64,000 nucleotides of DNA from an uncultured Bacteroidales bacterium (GCA_963785325.1 CAWAVC010000025.1:202051-266050), one strand, 5' to 3'. Shown: positions 2,822-60,665, counted from the first letter of the stretch. Numbers and translations: made by a program. Notes: a model not told the origin generated them from the letters alone.

Positions 2822-4897
2822 ATGAAAAGTGTACTGGAATTCTGTCTGGCATTACTTTTTATTATTCCTGTTGACGGACATTCACAGGATGAAAACCGGG
2901 ATCTACTCGAAAGAATGACAGAAAAGTTATCAGAAACATCTGATAAACCTATCGACTTTTCAGAAATCTCAGAGTGTCTTGACCACCTGAAAGACCATCC
3001 TATCAATCTGAACAACACGACCCAGGAAGAGCTCAGTCAATTAGTGTTCCTGGATGACAGGCAGATCAGCAATCTCATCCGGTACATTGTTACTTATGGA
3101 ACAATCTATTCTGTATATGAACTCAAAGTGGTAGATGGTTTTGATTCTGCAACCATTCGAAAAATTCTACCCTACGTGTCCATTGGGCCGGAAAAGGAGA
3201 AACATCCAATCAGGATAAATGATCTACTGAAATCAGGAAGACACCAACTTGTGATAAGAGCCGGGCAGGTTGTCCAGAAGCAGGCCGGATACCATGTTTC
3301 AGATTCACTGCTTAAGAAGAATCCCAATGCCGGATATGAGGGTAGTCCTGCGAGACTTTATTTCCGCTATTCCTATTCCTTTTATAATCGTCTTTCGATA
3401 GGCTTCAGCGGACAGAAAGATGCCGGTGAACAGTTTTTCAGGGGAGCTCAGAAATATGGGATGGATTTTTATTCCGGGTATATCAGTCTTCAAAATACAG
3501 GCATACTCAAACAGATTACGATCGGTAATTTTAATGTTGACTTTGGACAGGGACTTACTTTCAGTTCCGGCATTTCAGCGGGAGCCATTCCAGGAACGGG
3601 AAACGTAAGAAGATATGCACGGGGCATCGTGCCAAGCCAGTCGGTCAATGAAGAGAATTATCTCCGGGGAATTGCCATGGTGTTAAAAAAATGGAAATTC
3701 AGGTTATCCCTTATCTGTTCAACTCATAAGCGAGATGCAAATGTGACGGGGGTAGATACGGTTACCGGCGATGCTGGAATCGTTAGTTCATTTACTGAAA
3801 CCGGATATCACCGGATCCCAAGGGAAATTGAAGACAAGAATTCCATCCGTGAATCCATCCTGGGAGGCAATGTCAACTTTAAGAACTCTTTCTTTTCCAT
3901 CGGTTTTACCGGTTTCCATAGCCACTGGAGCGCAGACCTGGAGCCAAAGATCTATCCCTACAACCTTTTTACTTTTCATGGAAAGGAAAACATGAATGCC
4001 GGGGTTGATTTCCAGGTCGCGTTGCCTGATATATATATATCCGGCGAATGTTCCCGAAGCAGGAATGGAGGAATGGCATTTGTTTCCGGTATCCAGTTTA
4101 CTCCCGATCCAAGGATGATGTTTTCTGTTTCATTGCGTGACTATCAGCGCAATTACCAGGATCTTTTATCAAATGCGCCAGGACAAAACAGTTCAAATGA
4201 AAATGAAGAAGGGGTACAGGTTACCTTCAATGCCGGGATTGCGCCAGGTTTGGGTTTGACCGGCTATGCCGATATTTACCGGTTCCCCTGGCTGAAGTAC
4301 AGAACCGACAGCCCATCCTATGGAAGTGAATATCAAATGCAGTCAAATTATACTGCCGGCAGATTTATTAAGATGTTCTTACGACTCAGGATCAGGTCTA
4401 AACAGATTAATAGTACTGAGGCATCGCGGCCGGTCAATGTATTGCAAGAAGAAAAAATAATCACGCTGCGTTACCAGGCTGATTGGCAGGTAACCGAATT
4501 TTTGCTTTTAAGAAGCTGTTTTGATTGGCTGCAAAACCGTTATAAAAAATCCACTCCAGCTTATGGTTATTTACTCAGCCAGAACCTCGTGTACAAACTC
4601 CCGGTACATCATTTTTCATTTATTTTACTTTATGCCTTGTTTGATACCGACTCCTATAACGAAAGGATCTATTCTTATGAAAGTGATGTACAGTACAGTA
4701 ATTCAATTCCTTCTTATTATGGGAAGGGAATTCGTTGTATGATCATGATCGATTGGGCGCCTTATCACTGGTTTGATTTTTCCCTGAGATACGGACAGAC
4801 CTGGTATTCCGACAGAAACGTAATTGGTACCGGTCTCGACCAGATCAACGGCAGTACAAAATCGGAAGTAGAGTTGCAGTATAAGATGAGGTTCTGA
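2822..4897 (+). CDS. helix-hairpin-helix domain-containing outer-membrane protein
   Basis: Signal-like N-terminus MKSVLEFCLALLFIIPVDGHS. ComEA-like HhH segment INLNNTTQEELSQLVFLDDRQISNLIRYI. Long beta-rich region ending ...QYKMRF. ATG 2822 preferred over TTG 2798. Confidence 0.6.
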   Translation: MKSVLEFCLALLFIIPVDGHSQDENRDLLERMTEKLSETSDKPIDFSEISECLDHLKDHPINLNNTTQEELSQLVFLDDRQISNLIRYIVTYGTIYSVYELKVVDGFDSATIRKILPYVSIGPEKEKHPIRINDLLKSGRHQLVIRAGQVVQKQAGYHVSDSLLKKNPNAGYEGSPARLYFRYSYSFYNRLSIGFSGQKDAGEQFFRGAQKYGMDFYSGYISLQNTGILKQITIGNFNVDFGQGLTFSSGISAGAIPGTGNVRRYARGIVPSQSVNEENYLRGIAMVLKKWKFRLSLICSTHKRDANVTGVDTVTGDAGIVSSFTETGYHRIPREIEDKNSIRESILGGNVNFKNSFFSIGFTGFHSHWSADLEPKIYPYNLFTFHGKENMNAGVDFQVALPDIYISGECSRSRNGGMAFVSGIQFTPDPRMMFSVSLRDYQRNYQDLLSNAPGQNSSNENEEGVQVTFNAGIAPGLGLTGYADIYRFPWLKYRTDSPSYGSEYQMQSNYTAGRFIKMFLRLRIRSKQINSTEASRPVNVLQEEKIITLRYQADWQVTEFLLLRSCFDWLQNRYKKSTPAYGYLLSQNLVYKLPVHHFSFILLYALFDTDSYNERIYSYESDVQYSNSIPSYYGKGIRCMIMIDWAPYHWFDFSLRYGQTWYSDRNVIGTGLDQINGSTKSEVELQYKMRF

Positions 4898-4990
4898 GAT
4901 CAGAAATAATAAATTTGTTCACAATAAGTGAACTTTTATAGCAAATGACCATATATTTGCATTCTGTTGATGATTATTAAGACAATTTAG

Positions 4991-5440
4991 ATGAAAACGT
5001 TGAAATATAAGATAATCAAATCCCTAAAGCAGTATCAACAGTATTGCAAAACATTAGAGATACTGGTTGGTACAAAGTCAAAGAGTAAAGAGGTCAGGGA
5101 TGAAATTGAACTTTTGACTTTTTTAATTTTTAAATGGGATTCTGAAAATTCTTCTACCAAGGATCTTGATCCAATTGAACTGTTTCATTCGCTTATGAAG
5201 GAACATAATCTCAGAGCCAAAAACCTGGTCAATATATTAGGCGTAAGTAAAGGGATGATCTCGGATATTTTAAATTACAAAAAAGGTTTATCAAAGGATA
5301 TTATCCGAAATCTGGCTGGATATTTCAAGGTTTCCCAGGAAGCTTTCAACCGCACTTACAAATTGAAAAATCCTGTAAATTCCCGGTTACAGGATGCAAG
5401 TTTGATGAATACGTCCAAAGAGCTTGAAATGATTTATTAA
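4991..5440 (+). CDS. XRE-family HTH protein, HigA-like antitoxin (no partner toxin ORF seen)
   Basis: HTH segment NLVNILGVSKGMISDILNYKKGLSKDIIRNLAGYF preceded by a helical N-domain, as in HigA-type antitoxins. Confidence 0.5.
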   Translation: MKTLKYKIIKSLKQYQQYCKTLEILVGTKSKSKEVRDEIELLTFLIFKWDSENSSTKDLDPIELFHSLMKEHNLRAKNLVNILGVSKGMISDILNYKKGLSKDIIRNLAGYFKVSQEAFNRTYKLKNPVNSRLQDASLMNTSKELEMIY

Positions 5441-20390: not shown

Positions 20391-20512
20391 AAGATGAAAA
20401 ATAGAGGACGAGCGGATAAGCGGATAAGCAGACGGACGAAGTGGTGAGTAGTGAACGGAGGATGGAAGATGGAGAATGAAGAATGAAGAATGAAAAATGA
20501 AGAATGAAAAAT
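20378..20512 (+). repeat. mosaic array: AATGAAA, AAGCGGAT, GGATGGA, GAATGAA
   Basis: Direct reading. Overlaps the moaC stop codon and the next start codon. Confidence 0.85.
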
Positions 20513-21434
20513 GAAAGAGTTAAAAGTTATTTCGGTCAATGTGTCTGAGACTAAGGGGACGATAAAGCACCCTGTTGAGTCAATTCATTTGACTGATATG
20601 GGGGTGGAGCATGATGCTCATTCGGGAGCCTGGAACAGGCAGGTGAGTTTGCTTGGGATTGAAAGCATCCGGAAGTATGAAAAAGTAACAAGCAGGAAAG
20701 TATCTCACGGTGAATTTGCTGAAAATATTACGACGGAGGGATTTGATCTTTGGAAAATGAACCCCCTAGATAGGTTCACCGTTGGGGATGCCGAACTTGA
20801 AGTGACCCAGATCGGTAAAGAATGTCATGGGACTTCGTGCGCAATTTTTAAGGAAACCGGAGATTGTATAATGCCTAAAGAAGGGATTTTCTGCCGTGTA
20901 ATCCGGCCGGGAGTGATTCGACCGAGTGATGTACTCGAATATCATCCGAAAGTTTTTTTAATCCGGATCATTACTCTCAGTGACCGTGCCAGTCGCGGTG
21001 AATATGAGGACAAGTCGGGTCCTCTAATCAAAGAACTCCTCATGGAATTTTTTACCAGTCACCATTTACAATTCACAATTCACAATTCACTAATCCCTGA
21101 TGATCCTGATCAACTTAGAGACTTTATGAACCGGGCAAAGCAGGATAAAACTGATTTTGTTTTCACTACCGGGGGTACAGGAATCGGTACTAAAGATCTC
21201 ACTCCGGAAGTTGTTAAACCTTTGCTGGATAAGGAAATCCCGGGTATTATGGAGTTGATCCGCACCAAGTATGGGGCAGAAAAACCGAATGCTCTTGTCA
21301 GCCGGAGTATAGCAGGTGTCATGAGGGAAAGTCTTGTTTTCACGTTACCAGGTAGTGTGAAGGCTGTAAATGAATACATGACCGAAATCTTACCCACCAT
21401 CAATCACCTGGTATTTCATGCTTCATGGCATTGA
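20511..21434 (+). CDS. MOSC domain fused to a MogA/MoaB-type molybdopterin adenylyltransferase domain
   Basis: N-terminal half has a MOSC-like beta barrel (ENITTEG...GDAELEVTQIGKECH). C-terminal half has ITLSDRASRGEYEDKSGP...TTGGTGIGTKDLTPE. An in-frame 3x ACAATTC array lies at 21068-21090. Confidence 0.75.
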   Translation: MKELKVISVNVSETKGTIKHPVESIHLTDMGVEHDAHSGAWNRQVSLLGIESIRKYEKVTSRKVSHGEFAENITTEGFDLWKMNPLDRFTVGDAELEVTQIGKECHGTSCAIFKETGDCIMPKEGIFCRVIRPGVIRPSDVLEYHPKVFLIRIITLSDRASRGEYEDKSGPLIKELLMEFFTSHHLQFTIHNSLIPDDPDQLRDFMNRAKQDKTDFVFTTGGTGIGTKDLTPEVVKPLLDKEIPGIMELIRTKYGAEKPNALVSRSIAGVMRESLVFTLPGSVKAVNEYMTEILPTINHLVFHASWH

Positions 21435-42294: not shown

Positions 42295-44560
42295 CTAGAA
42301 CCTGAATCCAACTATGGTGACCCCCGCTCCACCGTGCTCAAGTTCCTCATCCCCGAATTTCTTAACCTCCTTAACACTTGCAAGAATAATCCCTCGTGAC
42401 CTGTCGGAGGACTCCATTTCCTTTACCGTGCAGGATCCTGACTTCGGGAATGTTCAGGAGAATGGCGTCATCAATGTACTTCTGCAATAAGGCGTGGGCT
42501 TCGTCGGCCCGTTTCCCTCTCAAATCCAGTGTGAGCTCAAAATGAAGAAGCTTCCTCTGAAGATCGTCATAAAACGACTGATAGGGTCCGCGGGTAGTGG
42601 TGACCGCCGACTGTTTCGGGATCAGTGGTACAAACTTTTTCCCCTTTTGATCCTTTTTATCTTCTTTAGGAGCATCCTGTTCAATCCTGGCTTTTAGTTC
42701 CTGGATTTCCTGTCTCACTTCTTTTGTCCGGTTTTTATCTGCCTGGCTCTCCCTGATCTCTTTAATGGTCTTTTCAATGAGGCGGTTTGATTCATTCAAT
42801 ATATTAAGGGCTTCCTCCTTCGCCTTCCGGAGGATTTCTTTTTGTGAGATTTCCAGTTCTTCTTTCAGTCTGGTATATTTGGTGATCATCTCATTCAGAA
42901 ACTCATCTGCCACTTTAATTTCTGTGGATTTCTGTATCAGTTCTGTCTTTTCAGCTTCCAGGTTTTGGAGTTCCCGGTCGAAATCAAGCTGACTGGTCCC
43001 GGTCTTACCGGCAGCAGCCTTAAGCACCTTTGATGGAAATCCGATCTGACGTGCAATCTCAAAAGCAAATGAACTTCCGGGTTTGCCAATCTTTAACAGA
43101 TACAGCGGCTTCATTTTTACGGTGTCATATAGCATGGCACCATTAGCAATCCCGGGGGTCTTCCCGGCCAGAAGTTTAAGGTTTGAATAATGGGTGGTGA
43201 CCAGCCCGAATGCGTTTTTACGGTTCATCTCCTCAAGACTGGCTTCGGCTATAGGACCACCCAGGGCGGGATCGGTACCGGTTCCGAATTCATCGATCAG
43301 GAAAAGAGAATTTTCATCCAGGTGTTCAAGGAAAAATTTCAGGTTCAGCAACTTTGAAGTATAGGTGCTGAGGTCATTTTCGAGAGATTGTTCATCACCG
43401 ATATCGATGAAGATATTCCTGAAAACGCCAAAGACAGAATCTTCCTTTGAAGAAGGCAGCATCCCGCATTGAAACATATACTGTAACAATCCTGCTGTTT
43501 TGAGACAAACCGACTTACCGCCGGCATTCGGGCCTGAGATGATCAGAATCCTGTTCTCAGTATCCAGCTCGATGGAGAGTGGCACGACCTTTTTTTTCTG
43601 TCGCTGATGAGCAATGTACAGGAGAGGGTGAACTGCTTCTCTCCAATGAATAAGTGGCTTTTCTGAAAGAGTAGCAGGCAGTATTCCGTTGATCCGGATT
43701 GCCATCATGGCCTTGGCACGGATAAAGTCTATGGTTCCCAGGAAGTTGTATGCACGGATCAGTTCCCCGCAGCTTGGCCTGAGGCTATCGGTAAAGTCAG
43801 TCAGGATGTGGATAATCTCTCTGCGTTCAGCATAATCTAATTCACGAATCTCGTTATTGGTTTCAAGAACATCTGCAGGCTCAAGGTAAACGGTTTGCCC
43901 CGTAGCTGATTCGTCATGAACAAATCCCTGTAGTTTTCTTTTATGAGTACTTAATATTGGGATGACGAGTCTTCCGTCGCGCAAGGTCAATTCTGCATTT
44001 TCAGGAGTCCAGCCTGAATGCCTGGCCAGTTTCAGGTTCTGGGCAATCTTTTTTTCCACTGTCGCCAGCTTCGATCTTTTTTCCTTCCTGATCTTCTTCA
44101 AAGCTGCCGATGCCTCGTCCCTGACCTGCGATTTTTCGTCGATGATCCTGTCTATTCCCCTGATCAACTCCTTGTCGATGCTTATCTCTCCGCAGAGTAA
44201 GGAAAGATAAGGAAAATCATCCTCCGGATGCTTCCGGAAGAAATCAATGATCTGTGAGATGGAAGAGAGCGAAAGTTTCAGCAAGGATAGATTTTCAGGC
44301 TCGATAAATGTTCCTTCGATCCTTATCCTGAGTAGTTCAGAGGTCAGGTCATAATAATCCTGAGAAGGAAAATTTTCTTCCGATAAAAGGATGCGGCGCA
44401 ATTCCTCTGTCTGTCCCAGGAGCTGCCTGATCTCAGAAAGATCATCAGAAAACCCCATTTCCTCTGCATGGATTTTACCGGGACCGATACAGAATTCTTT
44501 CACAAGTTCCCGTATAGCATCAAATCCAATTTTCGATTCGAAATCAGAAGGAAAAACCAC
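42295..44560 (-). pseudogene. mutS2: endonuclease MutS2 with a frameshifted Smr-domain tail (or a sequencing error)
   Basis: Walker A GPNAGGKS and Smr motif ILHGKGNGVLRQ. After ...TRDY the conserved tail LASVKEVKKFGDEELEHGGAGVTIVGFRF continues in another frame down to a TAG inside a heptamer unit. The junction is near 42380-42392. Confidence 0.8.
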
Positions 44561-44590
44561 GATTAAAGTTTTGTGTAAAGGTACTATTTT

Positions 44591-44707
44591 ACTAGGTACT
44601 GGGTACTAGGTACTGGGTACTAGGTTCTGGGCACTGGGTACTGGGTGCTCTGGGTACTGGGTACTCTAGGTACTGGGTACTGGGTACTGGGTGCTGGGTA
44701 CTGGGTT
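44591..44707 (+). repeat. heptamer array GGGTACT/AGGTACT/GGGTGCT (5' arm of cassette D)
   Basis: Direct reading. Confidence 0.95.
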
Positions 44708-44765
44708 ATTAAATAAAAAATTCGTATTACTTTTTTGATTTTAGCCGATTAAGTTAATAAAAACC

Positions 44766-45140
44766 ATGAGCTATAAAAATCTTGAAATCTGGAAACTATC
44801 CAATGAACTGGTAAAAGAAATTCATCTGATGACAATAAATAAGCTACCTGGTTTCGAATTGTATGAAACAGGAAGCCAAATAAGGCGATCTAGTAAATCT
44901 GTGAAATCAAACATTGTTGAAGGCTATGGCAGACGAATATATAAACAAGAATATGTTCATTTTCTGATTATTGCAATTGCATCAAATGACGAAACGGTTG
45001 ATCATTTGGAAACGTTGTACATTACAGGTTCTTTAAAAGATGAGGTGTTATATCTTTCACTCACGTCAAAATATGAAAAACTCGGAAAAATGATTAATTC
45101 ATATATTGAAGCTGTAAAAAATGATTACAAAAAAAGATAA
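44766..45140 (+). CDS. four-helix-bundle protein (23S rRNA intervening-sequence protein / Avd-like family), divergent copy D
   Basis: LEIWKLSNELVKEIH...SQIRRSSKSVKSNIVEGYGR...FLIIAIASNDE has the family signature (W..a..l, Q..RAa.Si..NIaEG, a.gS..E). Confidence 0.8.
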   Translation: MSYKNLEIWKLSNELVKEIHLMTINKLPGFELYETGSQIRRSSKSVKSNIVEGYGRRIYKQEYVHFLIIAIASNDETVDHLETLYITGSLKDEVLYLSLTSKYEKLGKMINSYIEAVKNDYKKR

Positions 45141-45160
45141 TACCCAAGAACATAGAATCG

Positions 45161-45246
45161 AGCACCCAATACCCAGTACCTAGAGTACCCAGTACCCAGT
45201 ACCTAGTACCCAGAGTACCCAGTACCCAGAGCACCCAGTACCTAAC
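45161..45246 (-). repeat. inverted heptamer array (AGTACCC on +), 3' arm of cassette D
   Basis: AGTACCCAGTACCTAGTACCC is the perfect complement of GGGTACTAGGTACTGGGTACT in the 5' arm. Confidence 0.95.
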
Positions 45247-45252
45247 ACCTGA

Positions 45253-47821: not shown

Positions 47822-47857
47822 CGTGTGACACGAAGAGCCCCACCCCCGTCCCCTCCC

Positions 47858-49366
47858 CATTCGGGGCGTAATGGCGCTAACATAATATAATTATTATTAT
47901 CTTTGGCAAATAATTAAAACCAAAGATTATGACACCAAACCAATCATTAGAACGGAGCAACCAATTAAGAAAGTTCTTTAGAGCAGACTATTTTCAAGGG
48001 ATGTACAGTGTTTTTCCATTTGAAGTAATAGAACAGTTTGATACTTCAGGTACCAGGGATAGAGTATATAGTTGCGAAAACACGATCTTGACTATGGTAT
48101 ACTCTTCCACCCAAACAGATAAGACACTCCAAAATTCAGTAAACATTTTTAGCAAGATTCATCAAAACCAATCCGTGCGAATAATTAATGAAGCGGGAGC
48201 AGCAATTGAGCGGGAGAAAATGGAGGATTTGAGAAACGTTGAAGTTCGTAGAGGTCCAAAGAAAAAGTACAAGGTAAAAGTACCCAAAAGTAAAATTTCT
48301 GAAATATCAGTCAATACTGCAGGATATTCAAAAGCACGGAAGCGGATAAAATTCGAATTATTTCAGGAAATATTTAATAAAACAAAAGAGAATGACAGTT
48401 CAACGGCATTATGGCACGGAAAGAGAACTTTCATAACAGATGGCACTTATGTTCAAATGCAAGACACGGAGGAACTTCGAAAGATTTACAATGTCAACCA
48501 CAATGATGAAGAACATAAAGATAGCTATCCTCAGGGCCTGATACAGGCCATAATAGAACAAGGCAGTGGATTTATTCATGATTATACTTTATCAGACAGA
48601 CATTCCTCAGAGTTGTTCTTGATTTACCAATTAATAAAAAGTATTCCAAAGGATTGTTTTTTGCTGGCTGATGATTTGTATAACTGTTATGCAATATTTG
48701 CATTGGCCAGGAAACAAGGCTTTGATCTGATTGTTCCGGGCAAAAGAGTGAAAAATTATACTGTTTTAAAAGTGCTCGCTAAAGGGGATGAAATAGTTGA
48801 AGTGCAAAAGAGAGAGCATCCGAAATGGTTACCCAAGAGTGAAATTTTACCGGCGAAATTGTTACTTAGAAGATTGTCTTTTCTTTCTCCTGATGGTGCT
48901 ACTACACTGGTTATATACACTACATGGATGGATAAGAATATTCCTGCAAGTGAAATAATCCTAAAATATTTTACACGATGGGACATTGAAATAACAATAC
49001 GTGAAATAAAAACAATAATGGATGTCAATGTACTTAGAGGAAAAACGGATGATATTGTCAAAAAGGAGCTTATTTCGGCATTCATTGCCTATAACCTGAT
49101 AAAAAAGATAATAATGCAGTCAACCGAAAAGACTGCTTTTTCCCCCGAAAGAGATATCATTCAAGAATTCTTTGAGAACAATAAGGACATTCTTATTGAC
49201 AGAAAAGGTAGAGTTTACACCAGATGGTCTCCAGGTAGATATGGTAAAACTGGGAAAAGAAATCCTTAAGCATGTTATTAAAAGAAAACAAGGCAGACAA
49301 TACCCAAGAAGAACAAAAAAAGGTGCTTATAGAAAATACAAATAATAAGTTATGTTAGCGCCATTA
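47858..49366 (+). mobile_element. IS4-family insertion sequence inserted into a C-rich/G-rich hairpin element
   Basis: Perfect 17-bp IRs TAATGGCGCTAACATAA (47868-47884, and 49350-49366 inverted). TCCCC is present on both sides (47853-47857, 49367-49371). Whether the left boundary is 47858 or 47868 is uncertain. An internal TATCTTTG box lies at 47897-47904. Confidence 0.75.
47929..49269 (+). CDS. IS4-family DDE transposase
   Basis: FITDGTYVQM, FLLADDLYNCY and YFTRWDIEITIREIKT (Y-R-E-K signature). Confidence 0.8.
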   Translation: MTPNQSLERSNQLRKFFRADYFQGMYSVFPFEVIEQFDTSGTRDRVYSCENTILTMVYSSTQTDKTLQNSVNIFSKIHQNQSVRIINEAGAAIEREKMEDLRNVEVRRGPKKKYKVKVPKSKISEISVNTAGYSKARKRIKFELFQEIFNKTKENDSSTALWHGKRTFITDGTYVQMQDTEELRKIYNVNHNDEEHKDSYPQGLIQAIIEQGSGFIHDYTLSDRHSSELFLIYQLIKSIPKDCFLLADDLYNCYAIFALARKQGFDLIVPGKRVKNYTVLKVLAKGDEIVEVQKREHPKWLPKSEILPAKLLLRRLSFLSPDGATTLVIYTTWMDKNIPASEIILKYFTRWDIEITIREIKTIMDVNVLRGKTDDIVKKELISAFIAYNLIKKIIMQSTEKTAFSPERDIIQEFFENNKDILIDRKGRVYTRWSPGRYGKTGKRNP

Positions 49367-49499
49367 TCCCCCAAGAGGGAGGGGAGAAGCGAAAAGTGTT
49401 AAGTTTTAAGTGTTAAGTCATTAGGTTATTAGTTATTAATGACTATTTTGTGACTTTTCCCACGTCACGATTAAAATCCCAACCGGACAAACAAATTTC

Positions 49500-50363: not shown

Positions 50364-50468
50364 TGAAAGAGTGACAGAAACAGAGTCACAAAGTCACAAA
50401 GTCACAAAGTCACAAAGCGGACGGGCGACAAGCGGACAATTTGTAATTACAAATTACGAATTACGAAA
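50363..50468 (+). repeat. mosaic array: AAGTCACA x4, CAAGCGGA, AATTACG units
   Basis: Direct reading. Confidence 0.9.
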
Positions 50469-50700
50469 ACATTTTAGATTAACGATTACAATGTCCTTAT
50501 AATATTCCCGTTAATGTTATGAAATATTAATATTTGGATTTCTGCATTGTTTTTTTATTTCTTACTTTTGAAATCGTGACGCGAAACAATGACCCACCCC
50601 CTGCCCCTCCCCCAAGAGGGAGGGAGAGATGAAGGGAGAATATTGCGACGCGAATATCGAAATTCGTAATTTCAATTGTTATTCGTAATTCGTAATTTTT
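50440..50700. repeat. MITE-like palindromic element with AATTACG-array arms and a central C/G hairpin
   Basis: AATTACGAATTACGAA at 50452-50467 is perfectly complementary to 50682-50697. The centre carries CCCCTCCCCCAAGAGGGAGGGA (about 50604-50625). No ORF. Confidence 0.6.
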
Positions 50701-53015: not shown

Positions 53016-53535
53016 ATGGAGAACTTGCAGCATTGGTATGCCGTTTACACGAAACCCAGGAGTGAAAAGAAATTAGCCGAACGGTTGAGCGATCAGGGTA
53101 TCGAGGCCTATCTTCCCATGCGCAAAACCCTGAAACAATGGTCGGACCGGAAGAAGATGGTTAGTGAGCCGCTGATTTCTTCTTATGTTTTCGTTAATAT
53201 TTTCCAGAAAGATTATCTTGAAGTACTCAAGAAATGCCCGAAGCGCGTGAGGTATATGTGGTTCTGCGGCAAGCCTGCTGTTATTCCTTCAAACCGAGAT
53301 CCAGTCATTGAAGCTTATCATAAAACCAGGACCTTGATATCCAACGTGTTTCGTCATCTTTTCCCACAAGGTACCCGTGTGCAGGTGGTCTCGGTCATTT
53401 GAAGGGACTTACGGCGAACTGCTGAACCATGCCGGGAAACATAGAGTCATGATCAGGCTCGATAATCTGGATAAGGCGCTACTGCTGACGATTTCACCAC
53501 GGCTGTTGGAGGAAGTGAATGTGAGTAGTGAATAG
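53016..53535 (+). pseudogene. UpxY-family (NusG-like) transcription antiterminator, disrupted by at least one and probably three frameshifts
   Basis: The NGN domain WYAVYTKPRSEKKLAERL...SYVFV is intact. EIQSLKLIIKPG, FPQGTRVQVVS and FEGTYGELLNHAGKHRVMIRL (KOW region) lie in alternating frames between 53294 and 53400. Confidence 0.7.
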
Positions 53536-53592
53536 TGAGAGGTGAGAGGTGAGAGGTGAGAGGTGAGAGGTGAGAGGTGAGAGGTGAGAAGG
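53515..53592 (+). repeat. heptamer array AGTGAAT, then GGTGAGA x8
   Basis: Direct reading. Confidence 0.95.
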
Positions 53593-53816
53593 TAATTACT
53601 CATTTTTGTGTGCTAAGTTTTGGTATTTTCAGAGATGGGACTGGACAGGGCGAAGCTGTAAATGGTGAAAAGTGAGAGGTGAGAGGTGAGTGAGGGTGTG
53701 GGTGAGTGGAAAATGGTTAGTAGTGAATGTGGTCATGGAGAGTGGAGAATGAAATTTCAATAAAAAATCAAGATTATTTTGTATTTTTGAAAACATGTTA
53801 CAATAAATCACCTGGT

Positions 53817-54020
53817 ATGACAACCATTGTTATTAAGCCAAAAACAAAAACAGAAAGGGATTTTATTACCCGTCTGTTAAAAAAAATGAATATTGAAGTT
53901 GACCTGATTGAAGAACCTGAACCTAATTATAAAACCCGAAAAGCAATGGAAGAGGTTTATCATAAAAGGGGCACCAAGGTCAAGGATTCCAAAGAACTCT
54001 TTAAAGAGCTTGGAATCTGA
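53817..54020 (+). CDS. DUF2683-like antitoxin candidate
   Basis: MTTIVIKPKTKTERDFITRLLKKMNIEVDLIEE... The stop overlaps the start of the toxin remnant (ATGA). Confidence 0.45.
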   Translation: MTTIVIKPKTKTERDFITRLLKKMNIEVDLIEEPEPNYKTRKAMEEVYHKRGTKVKDSKELFKELGI

Positions 54021-54139
54021 TGTTTCAACTGGTCTACACCAATAGATTCAAAAAAGACATAAAACTTCTTCAGAAAAGAGGCTTTGACCTGAACTTGCTA
54101 AAAATCGTCATCTCCATTCTGGAAGAAAATAGTGAGTAG
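54020..54139 (+). pseudogene. YafQ/RelE-type toxin remnant (first ~37 codons only), cut off by the repeat arm of cassette A
   Basis: MFQLVYTNRFKKDIKLLQKRGFDLNLLKIVISILEEN matches the N-terminus of YafQ-type toxins (about 90 aa expected). The ORF then runs into AGTGAGT units and a TAG. Confidence 0.55.
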
Positions 54140-54161
54140 TGAGTGGTGAATAGTGAATGGT
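54131..54161 (+). repeat. 5' arm of cassette A (AGTGAGT, GGTGAAT, AGTGAAT)
   Basis: GTGGTGAATAGTGAATGGT at 54143-54161 is the perfect reverse complement of 54579-54597. Confidence 0.95.
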
Positions 54162-54177
54162 AAAAAAATGAATTTTC

Positions 54178-54524
54178 ATGGATCATAAAGATCTGGAGGT
54201 TTGGAAAGAATCAATGCTTCTTGCAAAGGAGGTATATTTTTTGACAAAAGGGTTTCCCAAAGAAGAAATATATGGGATTACCTCCCAAATCAGAAGAGCA
54301 TCGGTATCAGTTCCATCAAATATCGCTGAAGGCGCTGCAAGAAGTAGCGATAAAGAATTCATTCAATTTCTTTATATTTCCCTTGGTTCTCTCTCTGAAT
54401 TGGAAACTCAATTATTGTTATCCCGGGATTTGGAATTCATGAGGAATCCAGATATCTTACCAAAAATCGAATCGACAAAAAGAAAATTTTAGGTCTGATC
54501 AAATATCTGAAAAACAAAATTTAG
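54178..54524 (+). pseudogene. four-helix-bundle protein (23S rRNA IVS protein / Avd-like), copy A, with a 1-nt indel in an A-run near the 3' end (or a sequencing error)
   Basis: About 85% aa identity to copies B and C. After ...IESTK the tail KKILGLIKYLKNKI continues in another frame. The junction is at 54478-54490. Confidence 0.8.
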
Positions 54525-54548
54525 AAATAATGTAGTCGAATTCCCGCA

Positions 54549-54597
54549 CCCACACACACTACTAACTATTCACCTCTCACCATTCACTATTCACCAC
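54549..54597 (-). repeat. 3' arm of cassette A (inverted GGTGAAT/GGTGAGA units)
   Basis: See the 5' arm: 19-bp perfect complementarity. Confidence 0.95.
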
Positions 54598-55134
54598 TTG
54601 TTAGATACCCTTATCACAAGCAAGACGCGGATTAAGCTGCTGCTGAGGTTTTTCCTGAACAGCAACACTACTTCTTATCTGCGAAACCTGGAGACGGATT
54701 TCGACGAATCTACCAACTCCATCAGGATCGAGCTGAACAGGTTTGAGAAAGCCGGTTTGCTGGTTTCCGGGAAAGAACAGAACCGGAAGGTTTATAAGGC
54801 CAATACCAACCATCCCCTATTTCCCGATATCAACAATATCCTGAGGAAGTACATCGGGGTCGATCAGATCATCGATAAGGTGCTCGGACACCTGGGATCT
54901 GTAAATAAGGCATATATCACGGGTGATCTTGCGAGAGGAAAGGACGCCGACAGCATCAACCTCTACCTCATCGGCACTGAACTCGATCTCGACTACCTCA
55001 AACATCTCATAAAGAAGACTCAAACGCTGATACACCGCGGTATCAAGTATAAACTGCTGGACGAAGGGGAAGAAGCGGAATTTCTCAAAGAGAATCCAGA
55101 TGCATTTGTTATTTGGAAGGGGAATGGTGAATAG
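54598..55134 (+). CDS. winged-helix transcriptional regulator with a C-terminal nucleotidyltransferase-like domain
   Basis: MLDTLITSKTRIKLLLRFFLN...YLRNLE...IRIELNRFEKAGLL (ArsR-like wHTH). The TTG start directly abuts the repeat arm. Confidence 0.55.
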   Translation: MLDTLITSKTRIKLLLRFFLNSNTTSYLRNLETDFDESTNSIRIELNRFEKAGLLVSGKEQNRKVYKANTNHPLFPDINNILRKYIGVDQIIDKVLGHLGSVNKAYITGDLARGKDADSINLYLIGTELDLDYLKHLIKKTQTLIHRGIKYKLLDEGEEAEFLKENPDAFVIWKGNGE

Positions 55135-55238
55135 TGAATGGTGAGAGGTGAGAGGAGAAAAAGTGAGAGGTGAGAGGTGAGAGGAAAAAAAGTGAGAGGT
55201 GAGAGGTGAGAAGACGTGAGATGTGAGAAGTGAGAAGT
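55122..55238 (+). repeat. 5' arm of cassette B (GGTGAAT, then GGTGAGA blocks, GATGTGA, AGTGAGA)
   Basis: GTGAGAGGTGAGAGGTGAGA at 55192-55211 is complementary to part of 55628-55655. Confidence 0.95.
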
Positions 55239-55255
55239 AAAAAAAAAAGAATTTT

Positions 55256-55609
55256 ATGAATCATAAAGAGTTGGAGGTTTGGAAAGAGTCAATGATTCTT
55301 GCAAGGGAAGCTTACCTTTTGACTAAAGGTTTTCCTAAGGAAGAATTGTATGGAATTACTTCACAGATAAGAAGAGCATCGGTTTCTATACCATCAAATA
55401 TTGCAGAAGGTGCTGCACGAAGCAGTGATAAAGAATTCATTCAATTTCTATATATATCTCTGGGGTCACTCTCTGAACTTGAAACCCAATTCTTATTATC
55501 AAAAGATTTGAAATTTATTGAAAACCTTGAGGTTTTACATAAAATCGAATCGATAAAAATGAAACTTCTCGGCTTGATAAAATACCTGAAAAACAAAAAG
55601 AAAAAATAA
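55256..55609 (+). CDS. four-helix-bundle protein (23S rRNA IVS protein / Avd-like), copy B
   Basis: LEVWKESMILAREAY...SQIRRASVSIPSNIAEGAARSSDKEFIQFLYISLGSLSELETQ, 117 aa. Confidence 0.85.
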   Translation: MNHKELEVWKESMILAREAYLLTKGFPKEELYGITSQIRRASVSIPSNIAEGAARSSDKEFIQFLYISLGSLSELETQFLLSKDLKFIENLEVLHKIESIKMKLLGLIKYLKNKKKK

Positions 55610-55627
55610 CATCATACCTGTATTTAC

Positions 55628-55655
55628 ATCTCACCTCTCACCTCTCACCTCTCAC
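55628..55655 (-). repeat. 3' arm of cassette B (inverted GGTGAGA x4), followed by an AAACTTA array to 55710
   Basis: Direct reading. Confidence 0.95.
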
Positions 55656-55710
55656 AGCTTAACACTTAAAACTTAAAACTTAAAACTAATAACACTTAAA
55701 ACTAATACTT

Positions 55711-56413
55711 TTGAAAGCAGTAATTCTGGCGGGGGGTAAGGGAACGAGGTTGAAACCTTATACTACCGTTATTCCGAAGCCATTGGTGCCGGTTGGGGAG
55801 ACTTCGATTATCGAGATCCTGATCAGGCAACTTAAAAAGTCGGGAATTGAAGAGGTGGATGTGTGCCTGGGCCACTTTGCCGAAATCATCATGGCCTTCC
55901 TCGGAGATGGCAGCAAATGGGGAATAAAGATCAGGTATTCCGTTGAAACAAAGCTTATGGGGACAGTTGCTCCTCATTAAACTGCTCAGCGACCTGCCTG
56001 AGAATTTCCTGGTCATGAATGGCGATCTGCTGACAAATCTTGACTTTATGAATTTGTATGCTACCCATCTTAATAATGATTCATTGCTGACCGTTTCAAC
56101 GTATCAGCGGACGACAAAAATTGATTTTGGCGTTATCGAAACTGAAGGACAATCTGAGAAAGTTACCGGTTTTAAAGAAAAACCTGAATATAACTTCGAA
56201 GTCAGCATGGGGGTTTATGTGATGAACAGGAAGATCCTTGACTTTGTTCCCGATGACCAGCCTTTTGGGTTTGACGACCTGATGATCACACTGATTCAGA
56301 AGAAACAACCTATCTCAATCTACCGCTTCAATGGTTATTGGCTCGATATCGGGAGGCCGGATGATTATGAGAAGGCGAATGAGGATGTGGGAAAGGTGAG
56401 AGGTGAGAGGTGA
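55711..56413 (+). pseudogene. sugar-phosphate nucleotidyltransferase, split by a 1-nt indel (or a sequencing error)
   Basis: ILAGGKGTRLKPYT..IPKPLVPV in ORF1 and LVMNGDLLTN...WLDIGRPDDY in ORF2. The junction is at 55969-55977. TTG start. The stop lies inside a GGTGAGA unit. Confidence 0.8.
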
Positions 56414-56417
56414 GAAG
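56394..56417 (+). repeat. 5' arm of cassette C (GGTGAGA x3)
   Basis: Direct reading. Confidence 0.9.
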
Positions 56418-56434
56418 AAAAAAAATAAAAAAGT

Positions 56435-56788
56435 ATGAATCATAAAGATTTGGAAGTTTGGAAGGAATCGATGCTTCTTGCAAAGGAAGTATATCTTGTG
56501 ACAAAAGGTTTTCCTAAGGAAGAATTGTATGGAATTACTTCACAGATAAGAAGAGCATCGGTTTCTGTACCATCAAATATTGCAGAAGGCGCTGCACGAA
56601 GCAGTGATAAAGAGTTTATTCAATTTCTATATATCTCTCTTGGTTCCCTTTCTGAACTTGAAACCCAATTATTATTATCCCGGGATTTGAAATTTATTGA
56701 AAATCTGGATTTTTTACCAAAAATCGAATCGGTAAAAATGAAACTTATCGGCTTGATAAAATATCTTAAAAACAAAATGAAAAAATAA
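56435..56788 (+). CDS. four-helix-bundle protein (23S rRNA IVS protein / Avd-like), copy C
   Basis: 117 aa, about 90% identical to copy B. The nucleotide tract 56507-56566 is identical to 55328-55387. Confidence 0.85.
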   Translation: MNHKDLEVWKESMLLAKEVYLVTKGFPKEELYGITSQIRRASVSVPSNIAEGAARSSDKEFIQFLYISLGSLSELETQLLLSRDLKFIENLDFLPKIESVKMKLIGLIKYLKNKMKK

Positions 56789-56806
56789 CATCATAGTTGC
56801 ACTTAC

Positions 56807-56834
56807 ATCTCACCTCTCACTTCTCACTTCTCAC
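56807..56834 (-). repeat. 3' arm of cassette C (inverted GGTGAGA/AGTGAGA units)
   Basis: Direct reading. At least 13 bp is perfectly complementary to the 5' arm. Confidence 0.9.
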
Positions 56835-56844
56835 AATTTAAAAC

Positions 56845-57916
56845 TTGAAGATCGTAACGGTTATCGGGGCAAGGCCGCAGTTTATTAAGGCGGCGACTTA
56901 TGTCACGGTTACTTTGCATGTATCCTGATGTTGAAGAGATCCTCGTGCATACAGGGCAGCATTATGATCCGAATATGTCGGATATCTTTTTCGAGGAGCT
57001 GGATATTCCGCATCCTGATTTTAACCTGGAGGTCGGCTCAGGTTCTCACGCTGTTCAGACCGGTAAAATGCTCAGGGGTATAGAGACTATCCTTATGGAT
57101 AAAAAACCAGATTGGACACTGGTGTACGGTGATACAAATTCGACCCTTGCCGGTGCGCTTGCTTCCACGAAACTCAATATCCCCGTGGCTCATGTTGAGG
57201 CAGGGCTTCGATCCTTTAACCGGAAGATGCCTGAAGAGATCAACCGGATCGTGACAGACCATATTTCCGACCTCCTCTTCGCCCCTACCCCCACGGCTAT
57301 GGTCAACCTTGAAAAGGAAGGGCTGCTCGGATCAAGCTTCCAAACCGGAGATGTGATGTTCGATAGTACGCTATTTTACAAAGAGAAAATACTCAGGAAT
57401 CCTGACACGTATAAGACTAATGGACTTCCGGATAAATACCTGCTGGCTACGGTGCATCGTGCCGAAAATACCGATAACATCAATAACCTGAGAAACATTT
57501 TCAAGGCATTCTCTGAATCCCGGGAGACCATTGTGTTGCCCATCCATCCACGAACCCGGAAAAGCATCGCCAATATCATTCAGATTCCTGAAAATGTTCA
57601 CCTCATCGATCCCGTCGGATACCTTCAGATGCTTTATCTGACGATACATTCAGTCAAAGTCCTTACTGATTCAGGAGGCTTGCAGAAAGAGGCTTATTTT
57701 CTTGGTAAACAATGTATTACCCTGCGTACGGAAACGGAATGGCTGGAGACAGTTCACGATAATTGGAATATCGTTACAGGAACAGACCCGGATAAGATTC
57801 TGGGGGCTATACGGTCGGAAGTTCCTGATAAGCCTCAACATTCATCGTTTGGAGATGGACATGCGGCGGAGGCGATCGTTGAGAAGATAAAATGGGTACT
57901 GGGTACTGGGTACTAG
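56845..57916 (+). pseudogene. wecB: UDP-N-acetylglucosamine 2-epimerase with a frameshift after codon ~17 (or a sequencing error)
   Basis: (TTG)KIVTVIGARPQFIKAAT lies in one frame and SRLLCMYPDVEEILVHTGQHYDPNMS... in the next. There is one extra nt at 56896-56902 relative to the paralogous fragment at 62984. The tail WVLGTGY and the stop lie in a GGGTACT array. Confidence 0.8.
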
Positions 57917-59317: not shown

Positions 59318-60665
59318 CAGGCGGACGAAAAAAAGTCACAAAGTGATAGAGTGATAGAGTGACAAAGTAAAAAAGCGGACAAGCGGACAAGCGGACGGAC
59401 GAGGTGGTGAGAAGTGAGAGGTGAGAAGTGAATGAAAAATTAATAAAAAGTCACAGAATTCACAAAGTAAAAAAGCGGACAAGCGGACAAGCGGACAAGC
59501 GGACGGACGAGGTGGTGAGAAGTGAGAGGTGAGAAGTGAATGAAAAATTAATAAAAAGTCACAGAATTCACAAAGTAAAAAAGCGGACAGGTGAACAAGC
59601 GGACAAGCGGACAAGCGGACAAGCGGACAAGCGGACGGACGAGGTGGTGAGAAGTGAGAGGTGAGAAGTGAATGAAAAATTAATAAAAAGTCACAGAATT
59701 CACAAAGTAAAAAAGCGGACAGGTGAACAAGCGGACAAGCGGACAAGCGGACAAGCGGACAAGCGGACGGGCGAGGTGGTGAGAAGTGAGAGGTGAGAAG
59801 TGAATGAAAAATTAATAAAAAGTCACAGAATTCACAAAGTAAAAAAGCGGACAGGTGAACAAGCGGACAAGCGGACAAGCGGACAAGCGGACGGGCGAGG
59901 TGGTGAGAAGTGAGAGGTGAGAAGTGAATGAAAAATTAATAAAAAGTCACAGAATTCACAAAGTAAAAAAGCGGACAGGTGAACAAGCGGACAAGCGGAC
60001 AAGCGGACAAGCGGACAAGCGGACAAGCGGACGGGCGAGGTGGTGAGAAGTGAGAGGTGAGAAGTGAATGAAAAATTAATAAAAAGTCACAGAATTCACA
60101 AAGTAAAAAAGCGGACAAGCGGACAAGCGGACAAGCGGACGGACGAGGTGGTGAGAAGTGAGAGGTGAGAAGTGAATGAAAAATTAATAAAAAGTCACAG
60201 AATTCACAAAGTAAAAAAGCGGACAGGTGAACAAGCGGACAAGCGGACAAGCGGACAAGCGGACGGGCGAGGTGGTGAGAAGTGAGAGGTGAGAAGTGAA
60301 TGAAAAATTAATAAAAAGTCACAGAATTCACAAAGTAAAAAAGCGGACAGGTGAACAAGCGGACAAGCGGACAAGCGGACAAGCGGACAAGCGGACAAGC
60401 GGACAAGCGGACAAGCGGACGGACGAGGTGGTGAGAAGTGAGAGGTGAGAAGTGAATGAAAAATTAATAAAAAGTCACAGAATTCACAAAGTAAAAAAGC
60501 GGACAAGCGGACAAGCGGACAAGCGGACAAGCGGACAAGCGGACGGGCGAGGTGGTGAGAAGTGAGAGGTGAGAAGTGAATGAAAAATTAATAAAAAGTC
60601 ACAGAATTCACAAAGTCAGAGTCACAAAGTAAAAAAGTGACAAAGTAAGGAAGTGAGAACCTTGA
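59318..60665 (+). repeat. higher-order repeat: 10 composite units of about 108-157 bp
   Basis: Each unit has (CAAGCGGA)n with n about 3-8, with or without GGTGAAC, followed by a constant module CG(A/G)GCGAGGTGGTGAGAAGTGAGAGGTGAGAAGTGAATGAAAAATTAATAAAAAGTCACAGAATTCACAAAGTAAAAAAGCGGA. The constant module was counted 10 times. Confidence 0.95.

Follow-up and report, generated by a model that had tools for sequence, protein, structure and literature searches.

In a 64,000-nt stretch of DNA from an uncultured Bacteroidales bacterium (GCA_963785325.1 CAWAVC010000025.1:202051-266050; hereafter the window), every open reading frame (ORF) of PF05635/TIGR02436, the four-helix-bundle intervening sequence protein family, is preceded by an array of tandem heptamers in G-orientation and followed by an array in C-orientation, that is, by an inverted one. 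Our survey of the family shows that the two arms and the ORF form a conserved, family-wide unit across phyla, and we think it likely, with a probability of about 60%, that these cassettes are an ORF-bearing element of the rRNA intervening sequence (IVS) type placed in the intercistronic spacers of operons, excision by RNase III included. Three of the genes (A, B and C) lie in 54.0-56.9 kb, interleaved with genes for a regulator, a sugar nucleotidyltransferase and WecB. A preliminary description of this DNA had reported three such ORFs in inverted heptamer arms, alternating with polysaccharide-locus genes, and profile matches and arm pairings bear this out. A tblastn search with cassette B as query located a paralogous fourth cassette, D, beyond the range of that description (Table 1). 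All four ORFs matched most of both models, with scores of 90.9-128.5 bits for Pfam PF05635 (cut-off 33.8; 123-128 bits for A-C) and 92-125 bits for TIGR02436 (cut-off 24). A relative of the cassette B protein in the PDB is entry 2GSC (XCC0516; E = 4.7e-24), which has five chains; XCC0516 and Avd are described as pentamers, the PDB search itself having given only the chain count of 2GSC.

The arms of each cassette are complementary over 20-22 nt perfectly or over 33-59 nt at 82-95%, so that the cassettes have both the complementary termini with a long enclosing stem that mark an IVS and the terminal inverted repeats (TIRs) that mark a miniature inverted-repeat transposable element (MITE). In cassette A, perfect pairing spans 20 nt (54142-54161 with 54579-54598) rather than the 19 first reported, and extends to 34 nt at 82% (54128-54161 with 54558-54591). 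In B, the 20-nt pairing given earlier represents another register; we found 22 nt of perfect pairing (55163-55184 with 55634-55655), extending to 26 nt at 92%, with other registers possible. The 13-nt perfect core reported for C stands, with longer pairings of 15 nt at 93% and 33 nt at 82% (56388-56420 with 56803-56835). The arms of D are 95% complementary over 59 nt (3' side, 45184-45242), and irregular units are mirrored between them. Homology among A-C spans the cassette from 5' arm to 3' arm and ends there. Only seven C-orientation arrays occur in the 64 kb, four of them directly 3' of the four PF05635 genes; the earlier statement that the cassettes hold the only inverted arrays is correct for about 51-62 kb and fails for the whole window, where inverted arrays also lie at 21061, 38589, 45164 (cassette D) and 50657.

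The alternation of cassettes and host genes places the host genes, too, between inverted arms. The A 3' arm is complementary at 27/27 positions to the start of the B 5' arm (54570-54596 and 55125-55151), across the regulator gene, and the B 3' arm pairs with the C 5' arm over 34 nt at 88% (55623-55656 and 56388-56421), across the nucleotidyltransferase gene. This complementarity would permit other pairings in the RNA, or conversion between the arms of adjacent cassettes. Since host genes are bracketed equally well, the locus alone does not tell which unit is the bracketed one; the family survey does.

Inverted arms across the PF05635 family

We scored 156 cases, consisting of the four window cassettes and 152 homologous loci. 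The GTDB set was drawn from 80 homologue loci of GTDB species representatives, 78 of which were scored (82 cases with the window cassettes); 80 more loci came from JGI metagenomes, 74 of them scored. For each case, the 200 nt upstream of the ORF were aligned to the 200 nt downstream in reverse complement, and the same geometry shifted along the locus served as control. The 99th percentile of the controls was 24 in the GTDB set (2063 controls) and 26 in the metagenome set (625 controls), and a threshold of 24 was used for both. Taxa in the GTDB set included Omnitrophota, Nitrospirota, metagenome-assembled genomes (MAGs) of Ignavibacteriales and Melioribacteraceae, Bacteroidota, Beta-, Gamma- and 'Delta'-proteobacteria, Cloacimonadota, Melainabacteria, Blastocatellia, Neomarinimicrobiota, lineages of the candidate phyla radiation (CPR), Acutalibacteraceae and Dialister.

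Flanking inverted repeats scored above 24 in 57/82 cases of the GTDB set and in 48/74 of the metagenome set, or in 105/156 combined (67%), compared to 1% of controls (binomial p against 1%, ~1e-169). Inverted flanks are thus the rule in the family, so that the refuting condition set in the preliminary description, a family whose members mostly lack them, does not hold. This frequency, together with the different heptamer of cassette D, upholds the proposal, originally made from the locus, that the arms are part of the cassette and not of a background of arrays. The significant arms are tandem repeats, with a period of 7 in 79 loci, 8 in 21 and 9 in 3. In the GTDB set, a median of 24 positions are paired between the arms; ~26 nt separate the 5' arm from the start codon, and ~19 nt the stop from the 3' arm. 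The G-rich arm leads in 100/103; this layout is strand-symmetric and therefore means conserved ends that face inward, not polarity of the sense strand.

Repeat units vary by lineage (CGTGAAT, GTTATGA, GTAATCT, AGTGATGG, GTTGATA, GTGACAC, CGTGACT, AGGATTCA and others), and the 71 period-7 units have in common, after rotation, the consensus nGTGAnw, with an information content of 4.92 bits compared to 3.56 ± 0.19 (maximum 4.12) for a letter-shuffled null. Units lacking this core are GGGTACT, AGGATTCA and TTTTCGA. Arrays of 7- or 8-mers occurred at 1.20 per kb no more than 300 nt from the gene and at 0.15 per kb elsewhere, and 105/160 loci had none away from the gene; in most genomes, therefore, the arrays are confined to the cassette. 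One locus inspected by eye (L099) consists of ~20 GGTGAGT/GGTGAAT units, the ORF and ~15 inverted units, abutting both neighbours. Two to three copies within a few kb were present in 12/164 loci, always on one strand. The best family match to the window among GTDB species representatives was 63% identical, and the JGI metagenomes yielded a single close paralogue match, at 91% (L087).

Orthologous sites, operon context and predicted RNA stems

Comparison loci from relatives labelled Bacteroidetes or Bacteroidales MAGs were found via homologues of the 178-aa regulator encoded between A and B that share its conserved upstream leader (GATGGGACTGACCGGGCGAAGCTGTRAA). At locus L082 (regulator identity 90%), the leader, ending in ...GCTGTGAAAG, is followed directly by the regulator start codon, an empty site. 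At L084 (regulator identity 80%, syntenic upstream of the leader), two arms, the 3' one long, stand between the leader and the start codon, around a family ORF truncated at its 5' end, and cassette B is absent 3' of the regulator. In the window, an array, toxin/antitoxin remnants and cassette A follow the leader. Cassette D is absent at the orthologous MutS2/carboxyltransferase junction in L167, L168 and L169, whose carboxyltransferases are 82-93% identical to the window's, and homology with the cassette-free L167 resumes exactly at the end of the D 3' arm. These sites show that arms and ORF have come and gone together, at exactly defined positions between genes. The junctions compared (L082/L084/window and L167/window) reveal no target duplication, in relatives that are only 80-93% identical at the protein level and thus too distant to decide the matter. 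The suggestion of a mobile cassette in the preliminary description is therefore borne out as to the cassette, by empty and filled orthologous sites, and not as to its mobilisation, since neither a target duplication nor a mobilising enzyme nor any other mechanism of movement was found.

The leader reads GATGGGACTG(A/G)(C/A)C(G/A)GGGCGAAGCTGT(A/G)AA (window 53637-53665; about 4971-4999 in L082 and 4617-4645 in L084) and lies at the head of the polysaccharide locus, 3' of a NusG/UpxY-like gene and 5' of the ArsR-like regulator. The L084 element (4640-5000) is a decayed cassette in which the 5' arm is fused to mid-ORF, ~35 N-terminal codons are deleted and the long 3' array is kept; evidently, arms can outlive the gene. 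At the cassette D junction, MutS2 (42371-44560) is on the - strand in the window and co-directional with the downstream carboxyltransferase in L167, L168 and L169, its inversion coinciding with the presence of cassette D. We rejected a simple flip of MutS2 mediated by inverted repeats, as the flanking arrays are presently in direct orientation.

Among A, B and C, the ratio of nonsynonymous to synonymous divergence (dN/dS) was 0.07-0.15 (0.15 for C versus B) and dS was 0.38-1.33; the proteins are therefore functional, under purifying selection, and the copies are old. Perfect arm complementarity of 20-22 nt has been kept though synonymous sites between the paralogues are near saturation, and complementarity retained in copies this old therefore means selection for it or ongoing conversion between arms. 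The family gene is co-oriented with both neighbours in 96/107 loci (90%; ~65% expected; p = 4e-9), with a median gap of ~75 nt to each neighbour; the cassettes thus stand in line within operons and fill almost the whole spacer. Scans of the cassettes for sigma-70 promoters and intrinsic terminators stayed at the level of shuffled sequence, in a scan that does not cover Bacteroidota promoters.

When the cassette RNAs were folded, the arms formed the predicted closing stem of all four in both the minimum-free-energy and the centroid folds, in keeping with the stems envisaged at the outset. The fold z-scores were -4.0 for A, -4.6 for B, -5.4 for C and -14.9 for D, whose predicted closing stem is ~70 bp as read off the dot-bracket. 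Perfect duplexes of at least 20 bp are generic RNase III substrates. The match to ORF-bearing 23S IVSs, also claimed beforehand, extends to the protein family, to the complementary ends around the ORF and to the heptamers of Coxiella. The 23S IVS of Coxiella burnetii is a 428-nt element in helix 45 with an 'S23p' ORF of the PF05635 family, a 28-bp terminal stem that is cut by RNase III in vitro, and 2-4 tandem GACAGAT heptamers, variable in number among strains, with the 5' cleavage site at the first of them; its authors cite older proposals that see IVSs as remnants of transposition or as mobile elements (PMC4990558). In the cassettes as in the rRNA IVSs of Leptospira and Coxiella, a PF05635 ORF lies between complementary ends that pair into a long stem, and the Coxiella IVS also has its tandem heptamers in the 5' part. 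The ORF-bearing IVS of Leptospira 23S rRNA was reportedly described by Ralph & McClelland in 1993. The rRNA IVSs are regarded as selfish and horizontally transferred. Unlike them, the cassettes sit between protein-coding operon genes rather than in an rRNA helix (23S helix 9, 25 or 45, or 16S), have long tandem arrays for both arms and would be RNase III substrates by analogy; their ORFs are under purifying selection, whereas the Coxiella ORF is considered to be decaying by its authors.

Each cassette is self-contained and consists of a tandem-heptamer arm on the 5' side, a short A-rich leader, the ORF for the PF05635 four-helix-bundle protein and, on the 3' side, an inverted copy of the first arm. 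In the mechanism that we favour, read-through from the host operon would transcribe the cassette, and the arms would anneal over 20 to ~70 bp and thereby hold the ORF in a loop. The resulting duplex would be cut by RNase III, as are the IVS stems of Coxiella, Leptospira and Salmonella, and the cut would free the cassette RNA without religation. Such release would be harmless where continuity of the RNA is dispensable, namely at the tips of rRNA helices and in the gaps between cistrons. The tandem repeats would allow the arms to re-pair in many registers and to be re-homogenised by slippage or conversion, which may preserve the stem in the long term.

Several observations weigh against this mechanism or against parts of it. 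About one-third of family members have no detectable arms, and homologues on viral contigs have weaker ones, with ~6/18 exceeding the threshold. No conserved 23S or 16S segment was present in loci L001-L086, so that none of these surveyed loci is embedded in rRNA and the link to rRNA IVSs comes from the literature. The host genes of this locus are bracketed as well as the cassettes are, and competing pairings exist. No target-site duplication, transposase or integrase was seen at the compared junctions or cassettes. The excision step, which we infer from duplex length and the Coxiella precedent, is an analogy. Among arm mismatches, G:U pairs numbered 92 and A:C pairs 130 (p = 0.013 in the opposite direction); we therefore rejected a wobble signature of the sense RNA, and without an excess of G:U, selection acting specifically on a sense RNA helix is not supported. 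Finally, a stem needs neither a period of 7-8 nt nor an nGTGAnw core, and something sequence-specific is also acting. A stem alone does not account for the period, the tandem nature or the core of the units, which leaves room for a second layer in which the protein of the cassette, or some other factor, would recognise the units, and for a role at the DNA level as transposon-like ends.

Alternative readings of the arms

The alternative that survives best, although we regard it as unlikely, takes the arms to be arrays of protein-binding sites, instead of or besides an RNA stem, with the cassette's own four-helix-bundle protein as candidate binder. The nGTGAnw units, spaced at 7-8 nt, would be bound on DNA or RNA for autoregulation, for array maintenance or expansion, or for propagation, and solo arrays across the genome would be further targets or products of the binder's activity. 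A binder would make sense of a core and a period that are conserved across phyla beyond what complementarity needs, of the 8-fold enrichment of arrays beside the genes with usually none elsewhere, and of arm mismatches that show no bias to G:U. The protein is, moreover, the sole conserved component of the cassette and under strong purifying selection, and paralogues in one genome differ in unit (A-C versus D; L049 versus L077 in Adhaeribacter soli). This pairing of paralogue and unit could, however, come from co-inheritance alone, and proteins 55-63% identical to cassette B have quite different units, some units lacking the core altogether (GGGTACT, AGGATTCA, TTTTCGA). We know of no sequence-specific nucleic-acid binding by PF05635 proteins, and binding by itself does not explain the need for inverted arms.

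Less probable again, and in our judgement a long way from the favoured mechanism, is that the arms are TIRs of a non-autonomous, transposon-like DNA element mobilised in trans, perhaps also acting as substrates for inversion or recombination, with the RNA stem incidental. Presence/absence polymorphism at precise sites is what such an element would leave, as are ends that always face inward, with the G-rich arm first in 100/103, and several copies per locus both here and in 12/164 loci elsewhere; the missing RNA wobble signature and the inversion of MutS2 beside cassette D relative to three relatives also fit. Against these stand the lack of a visible target-site duplication at the compared junctions and of any transposase or integrase consistently nearby. 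Arm length and unit vary widely within one genome, which is hard to fit to a single trans-acting transposase, and the 90% operon co-orientation argues against free flipping between arms and points to a constraint at the level of the transcript. The last explanation, that in a genome saturated with heptamer arrays a few are inverted by chance beside small genes, has next to no probability left: arrays at ~1 per kb in the window and the bracketing of host genes speak for it, but it is refuted by the survey (105/156 cases versus 1% of controls, with no further arrays at most other loci), by the four of seven C-orientation arrays directly 3' of the PF05635 genes and by the mirrored irregular units of D, and we rejected chance or background arrays on the shifted-geometry controls and the array density.

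Neighbouring genes, other repeats and related systems

Feature coordinates are collected in Table 1, which refers to an independent assembly of the same locus, L001 (ENA ERZ25039480; 99.4% identical). Array copy numbers are equal in the window and L001. The frame break that ends the 104-aa call of ORF A is also present in L001, and the split nucleotidyltransferase and wecB ORFs reflect single-base indels relative to it. Clusters of indels and substitutions versus L001 at 53228-53647, 55975 and 56898-56921 break the NusG-like, nucleotidyltransferase and wecB ORFs; consensus errors from long reads, in one of the assemblies or in both, are their most probable source.

Table 1. Positions of the cassettes and of the features beside cassettes A-C in the window
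Feature	Coordinates	Strand	Remarks
Cassette D, 5' arm	44590..44711	+	GGGTACT heptamers
Cassette D, ORF	44766..45140	+	124 aa, PF05635/TIGR02436; 38% identical to B
Cassette D, 3' arm	45160..45250	+	AGTACCC heptamers
Outer GGTGAGA-type array	53665..53712	+	directly 3' of the conserved leader
Cassette A, 5' arm	54128..54161	+	AGTGAGT/GGTGAAT heptamers
Cassette A, ORF	54178..54521	+	104 aa, PF05635/TIGR02436; stop at 54492; C-terminal tail in other frame to ~54521
Cassette A, 3' arm	54557..54598	+	inverted heptamers; ends at the regulator's TTG start
Host gene between A and B	54598..55134	+	178-aa ArsR-like regulator, TTG start
Cassette B, 5' arm	55122..55244	+	GGTGAAT then GGTGAGA arrays; holds the regulator stop codon
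Cassette B, ORF	55256..55609	+	117 aa, PF05635/TIGR02436
Cassette B, 3' arm	55623..55655	+	TCTCACC x4; pairs with 5' arm in minimum-free-energy RNA fold
Host gene between B and C	55711..56413	+	sugar-1-phosphate nucleotidyltransferase (NTP_transferase); frameshift ~55975 not in L001
Cassette C, 5' arm	56388..56420	+	GGTGAGA x3; gives last codons and stop of the nucleotidyltransferase
Cassette C, ORF	56435..56788	+	117 aa, PF05635/TIGR02436
Cassette C, 3' arm	56803..56835	+	TCTCACC/TCTCACT; ends ~10 nt 5' of wecB start
Host gene 3' of C	~56846..57916	+	wecB (UDP-GlcNAc 2-epimerase); N-terminal indels not in L001

The gene order proposed for the locus was confirmed at NTP_transferase and wecB. 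Its regulator is ArsR-like by the names of its homologues, which NCBI calls ArsR-family regulators, and the YafQ remnant placed at its start has a weak Pfam match only. Upstream of cassette A lie the NusG/UpxY-like gene, antitoxin remnants and this YafQ remnant, and annotated neighbours also include an ATPase and RhuM. The outer array is possibly an older 5' arm of A that the DUF2683-like and YafQ-remnant genes have since split off, given that the 5' arm of L084 adjoins the leader directly. In PADLOC, a collection of anti-phage defence families, the regulator hits the candidate family PDC-M05A (E = 1.9e-23), and the cassette proteins have no match. Rfam at gathering thresholds returned two tRNAs only over the whole window; we therefore rejected a known RNA family as the identity of the cassettes, whose flanks are protein-coding genes, and found no rRNA in the window. 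No transposase lies in or adjoining the cassettes, and no integrase partner was seen. The window's only insertion sequence (47851-49384) is an ordinary one, with a DDE_Tnp_1 transposase (47929-49269) and 35-nt TIRs unrelated to the heptamers.

The window contains ~60-67 intergenic tandem arrays of 7-8 nt, with GGTGAGA, GGGTACT, AATGAAG and AAGCGGAC among the units. Heptamers repeated in tandem at least three times between genes characterise short tandemly repeated repetitive (STRR)-like sequences, and the window has such arrays. This genome is atypical in carrying ~1 array per kb throughout, where the flanks of other loci have 0.15 per kb. With few exceptions, the arrays are G-rich on the + strand regardless of the strand of the adjacent gene, which suggests that the underlying process is oriented by the chromosome or by replication rather than by transcription. 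The GGTGAGA and GGGTACT families are also present as solo arrays in nearly every intergenic region here; this suggests that the solo arrays of this genome derive from cassettes, and the decayed L084 cassette points the same way.

Other repeats of the region are of several kinds. A higher-order tandem repeat at 59373-60616 has ~9 copies of a 124-132 nt unit in which AAGCGGAC octamers are combined with a GGTGAGA/GGTGAAT block and an A-rich stretch. At 50444-50699, an inverted pair of AATTACG and TCGTAAT arrays surrounds ~190 nt that have no ORF and include a G+C-rich hairpin (CCCCTCCCCCAAGAGGGAGGGAG); the matching spacer is 100-180 nt shorter in relatives, and the pair may be an ORF-less cassette or a MITE. 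A C-orientation TCACAAT array (21061-21096) lies within the ORF of a MOSC/MoCF_biosynth fusion protein (20511-21434). In the polysaccharide locus of L082 (9490-9990), a small PDDEXK_3 (PF13366) gene is flanked by direct, not inverted, heptamers of an ACAGAT type that resembles the GACAGAT of the Coxiella IVS.

Long heptamer repeats are known from several bacteria: Rehm et al. described GGGAATC arrays in Xanthomonas, including 70-75 convergent (inverted) pairs (PMC4692102), and MacGregor described TAACTGA arrays in Beggiatoaceae, cyanobacteria and Bacteroidetes (PMC4679880). Neither paper ties the arrays to a gene cargo or to PF05635, and the words 'intervening' and '23S' do not occur in their texts. 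Like the arrays of the window, the cyanobacterial STRRs and the Xanthomonas and Beggiatoaceae repeats are intergenic, often abut start or stop codons and vary in copy number; in contrast, the arrays described here form the pair of arms around a cassette gene, and in most genomes they are confined to the cassette. Members of PF05635 have been noted in rRNA insertions of CPR bacteria (bioRxiv 2024.02.27.582315), and Avd has a homologous four-helix-bundle fold (PMC10053308). Cassette proteins and the Avd of diversity-generating retroelements thus have this fold in common, but there was no reverse transcriptase domain among the annotated cassette neighbours, template/variable repeat pairs not having been searched for. 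Avd genes are not, to our knowledge, accompanied by inverted heptamer arms. The cassettes also resemble MITEs and integron gene cassettes as small units with inverted ends that lie between genes, leave the operon intact and show presence/absence polymorphism. They differ from MITEs in their conserved, selected ORF, in tandem-repeat ends of variable length and sequence and in that no target duplication was seen, and from integron cassettes in having no attC-like single 3' site and no integrase partner. For PF05635 genes outside rRNA, we found no mention of flanking inverted heptamer arms in the literature, of which our coverage is incomplete, so that an earlier description is possible.

A broader reading, which we offer as a tentative whole and hold to be doubtful in comparison with the excision mechanism, is that PF05635 genes with inverted nGTGAnw arms make up a widespread, unrecognised class of autonomous elements ('IVS cassettes'). 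These would colonise sites where RNA continuity is dispensable, their own protein would bind, maintain or seed the arrays, and they would be the source of the genome-wide heptamers here and in cyanobacteria, Xanthomonas and Beggiatoaceae. Two puzzles have stood since the early 1990s, one being the nature of the intervening sequence protein family and its scatter over genomes, rRNA genes and cas operons, the other the tandem heptamers that litter some genomes. The locus and the survey join them, in that the arrays of heptamers make up the arms of a conserved cassette built on a PF05635 gene. The family has been noted inside cas operons, and its listing as 'CRISPR-associated' through guilt by association (PMC3936711, PMC10910872) calls for caution, as it may reflect insertion of cassettes into operons rather than function. 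The cassettes also bear on how operon mRNAs get segmented, and the generalisation from this locus to the family is potentially important.

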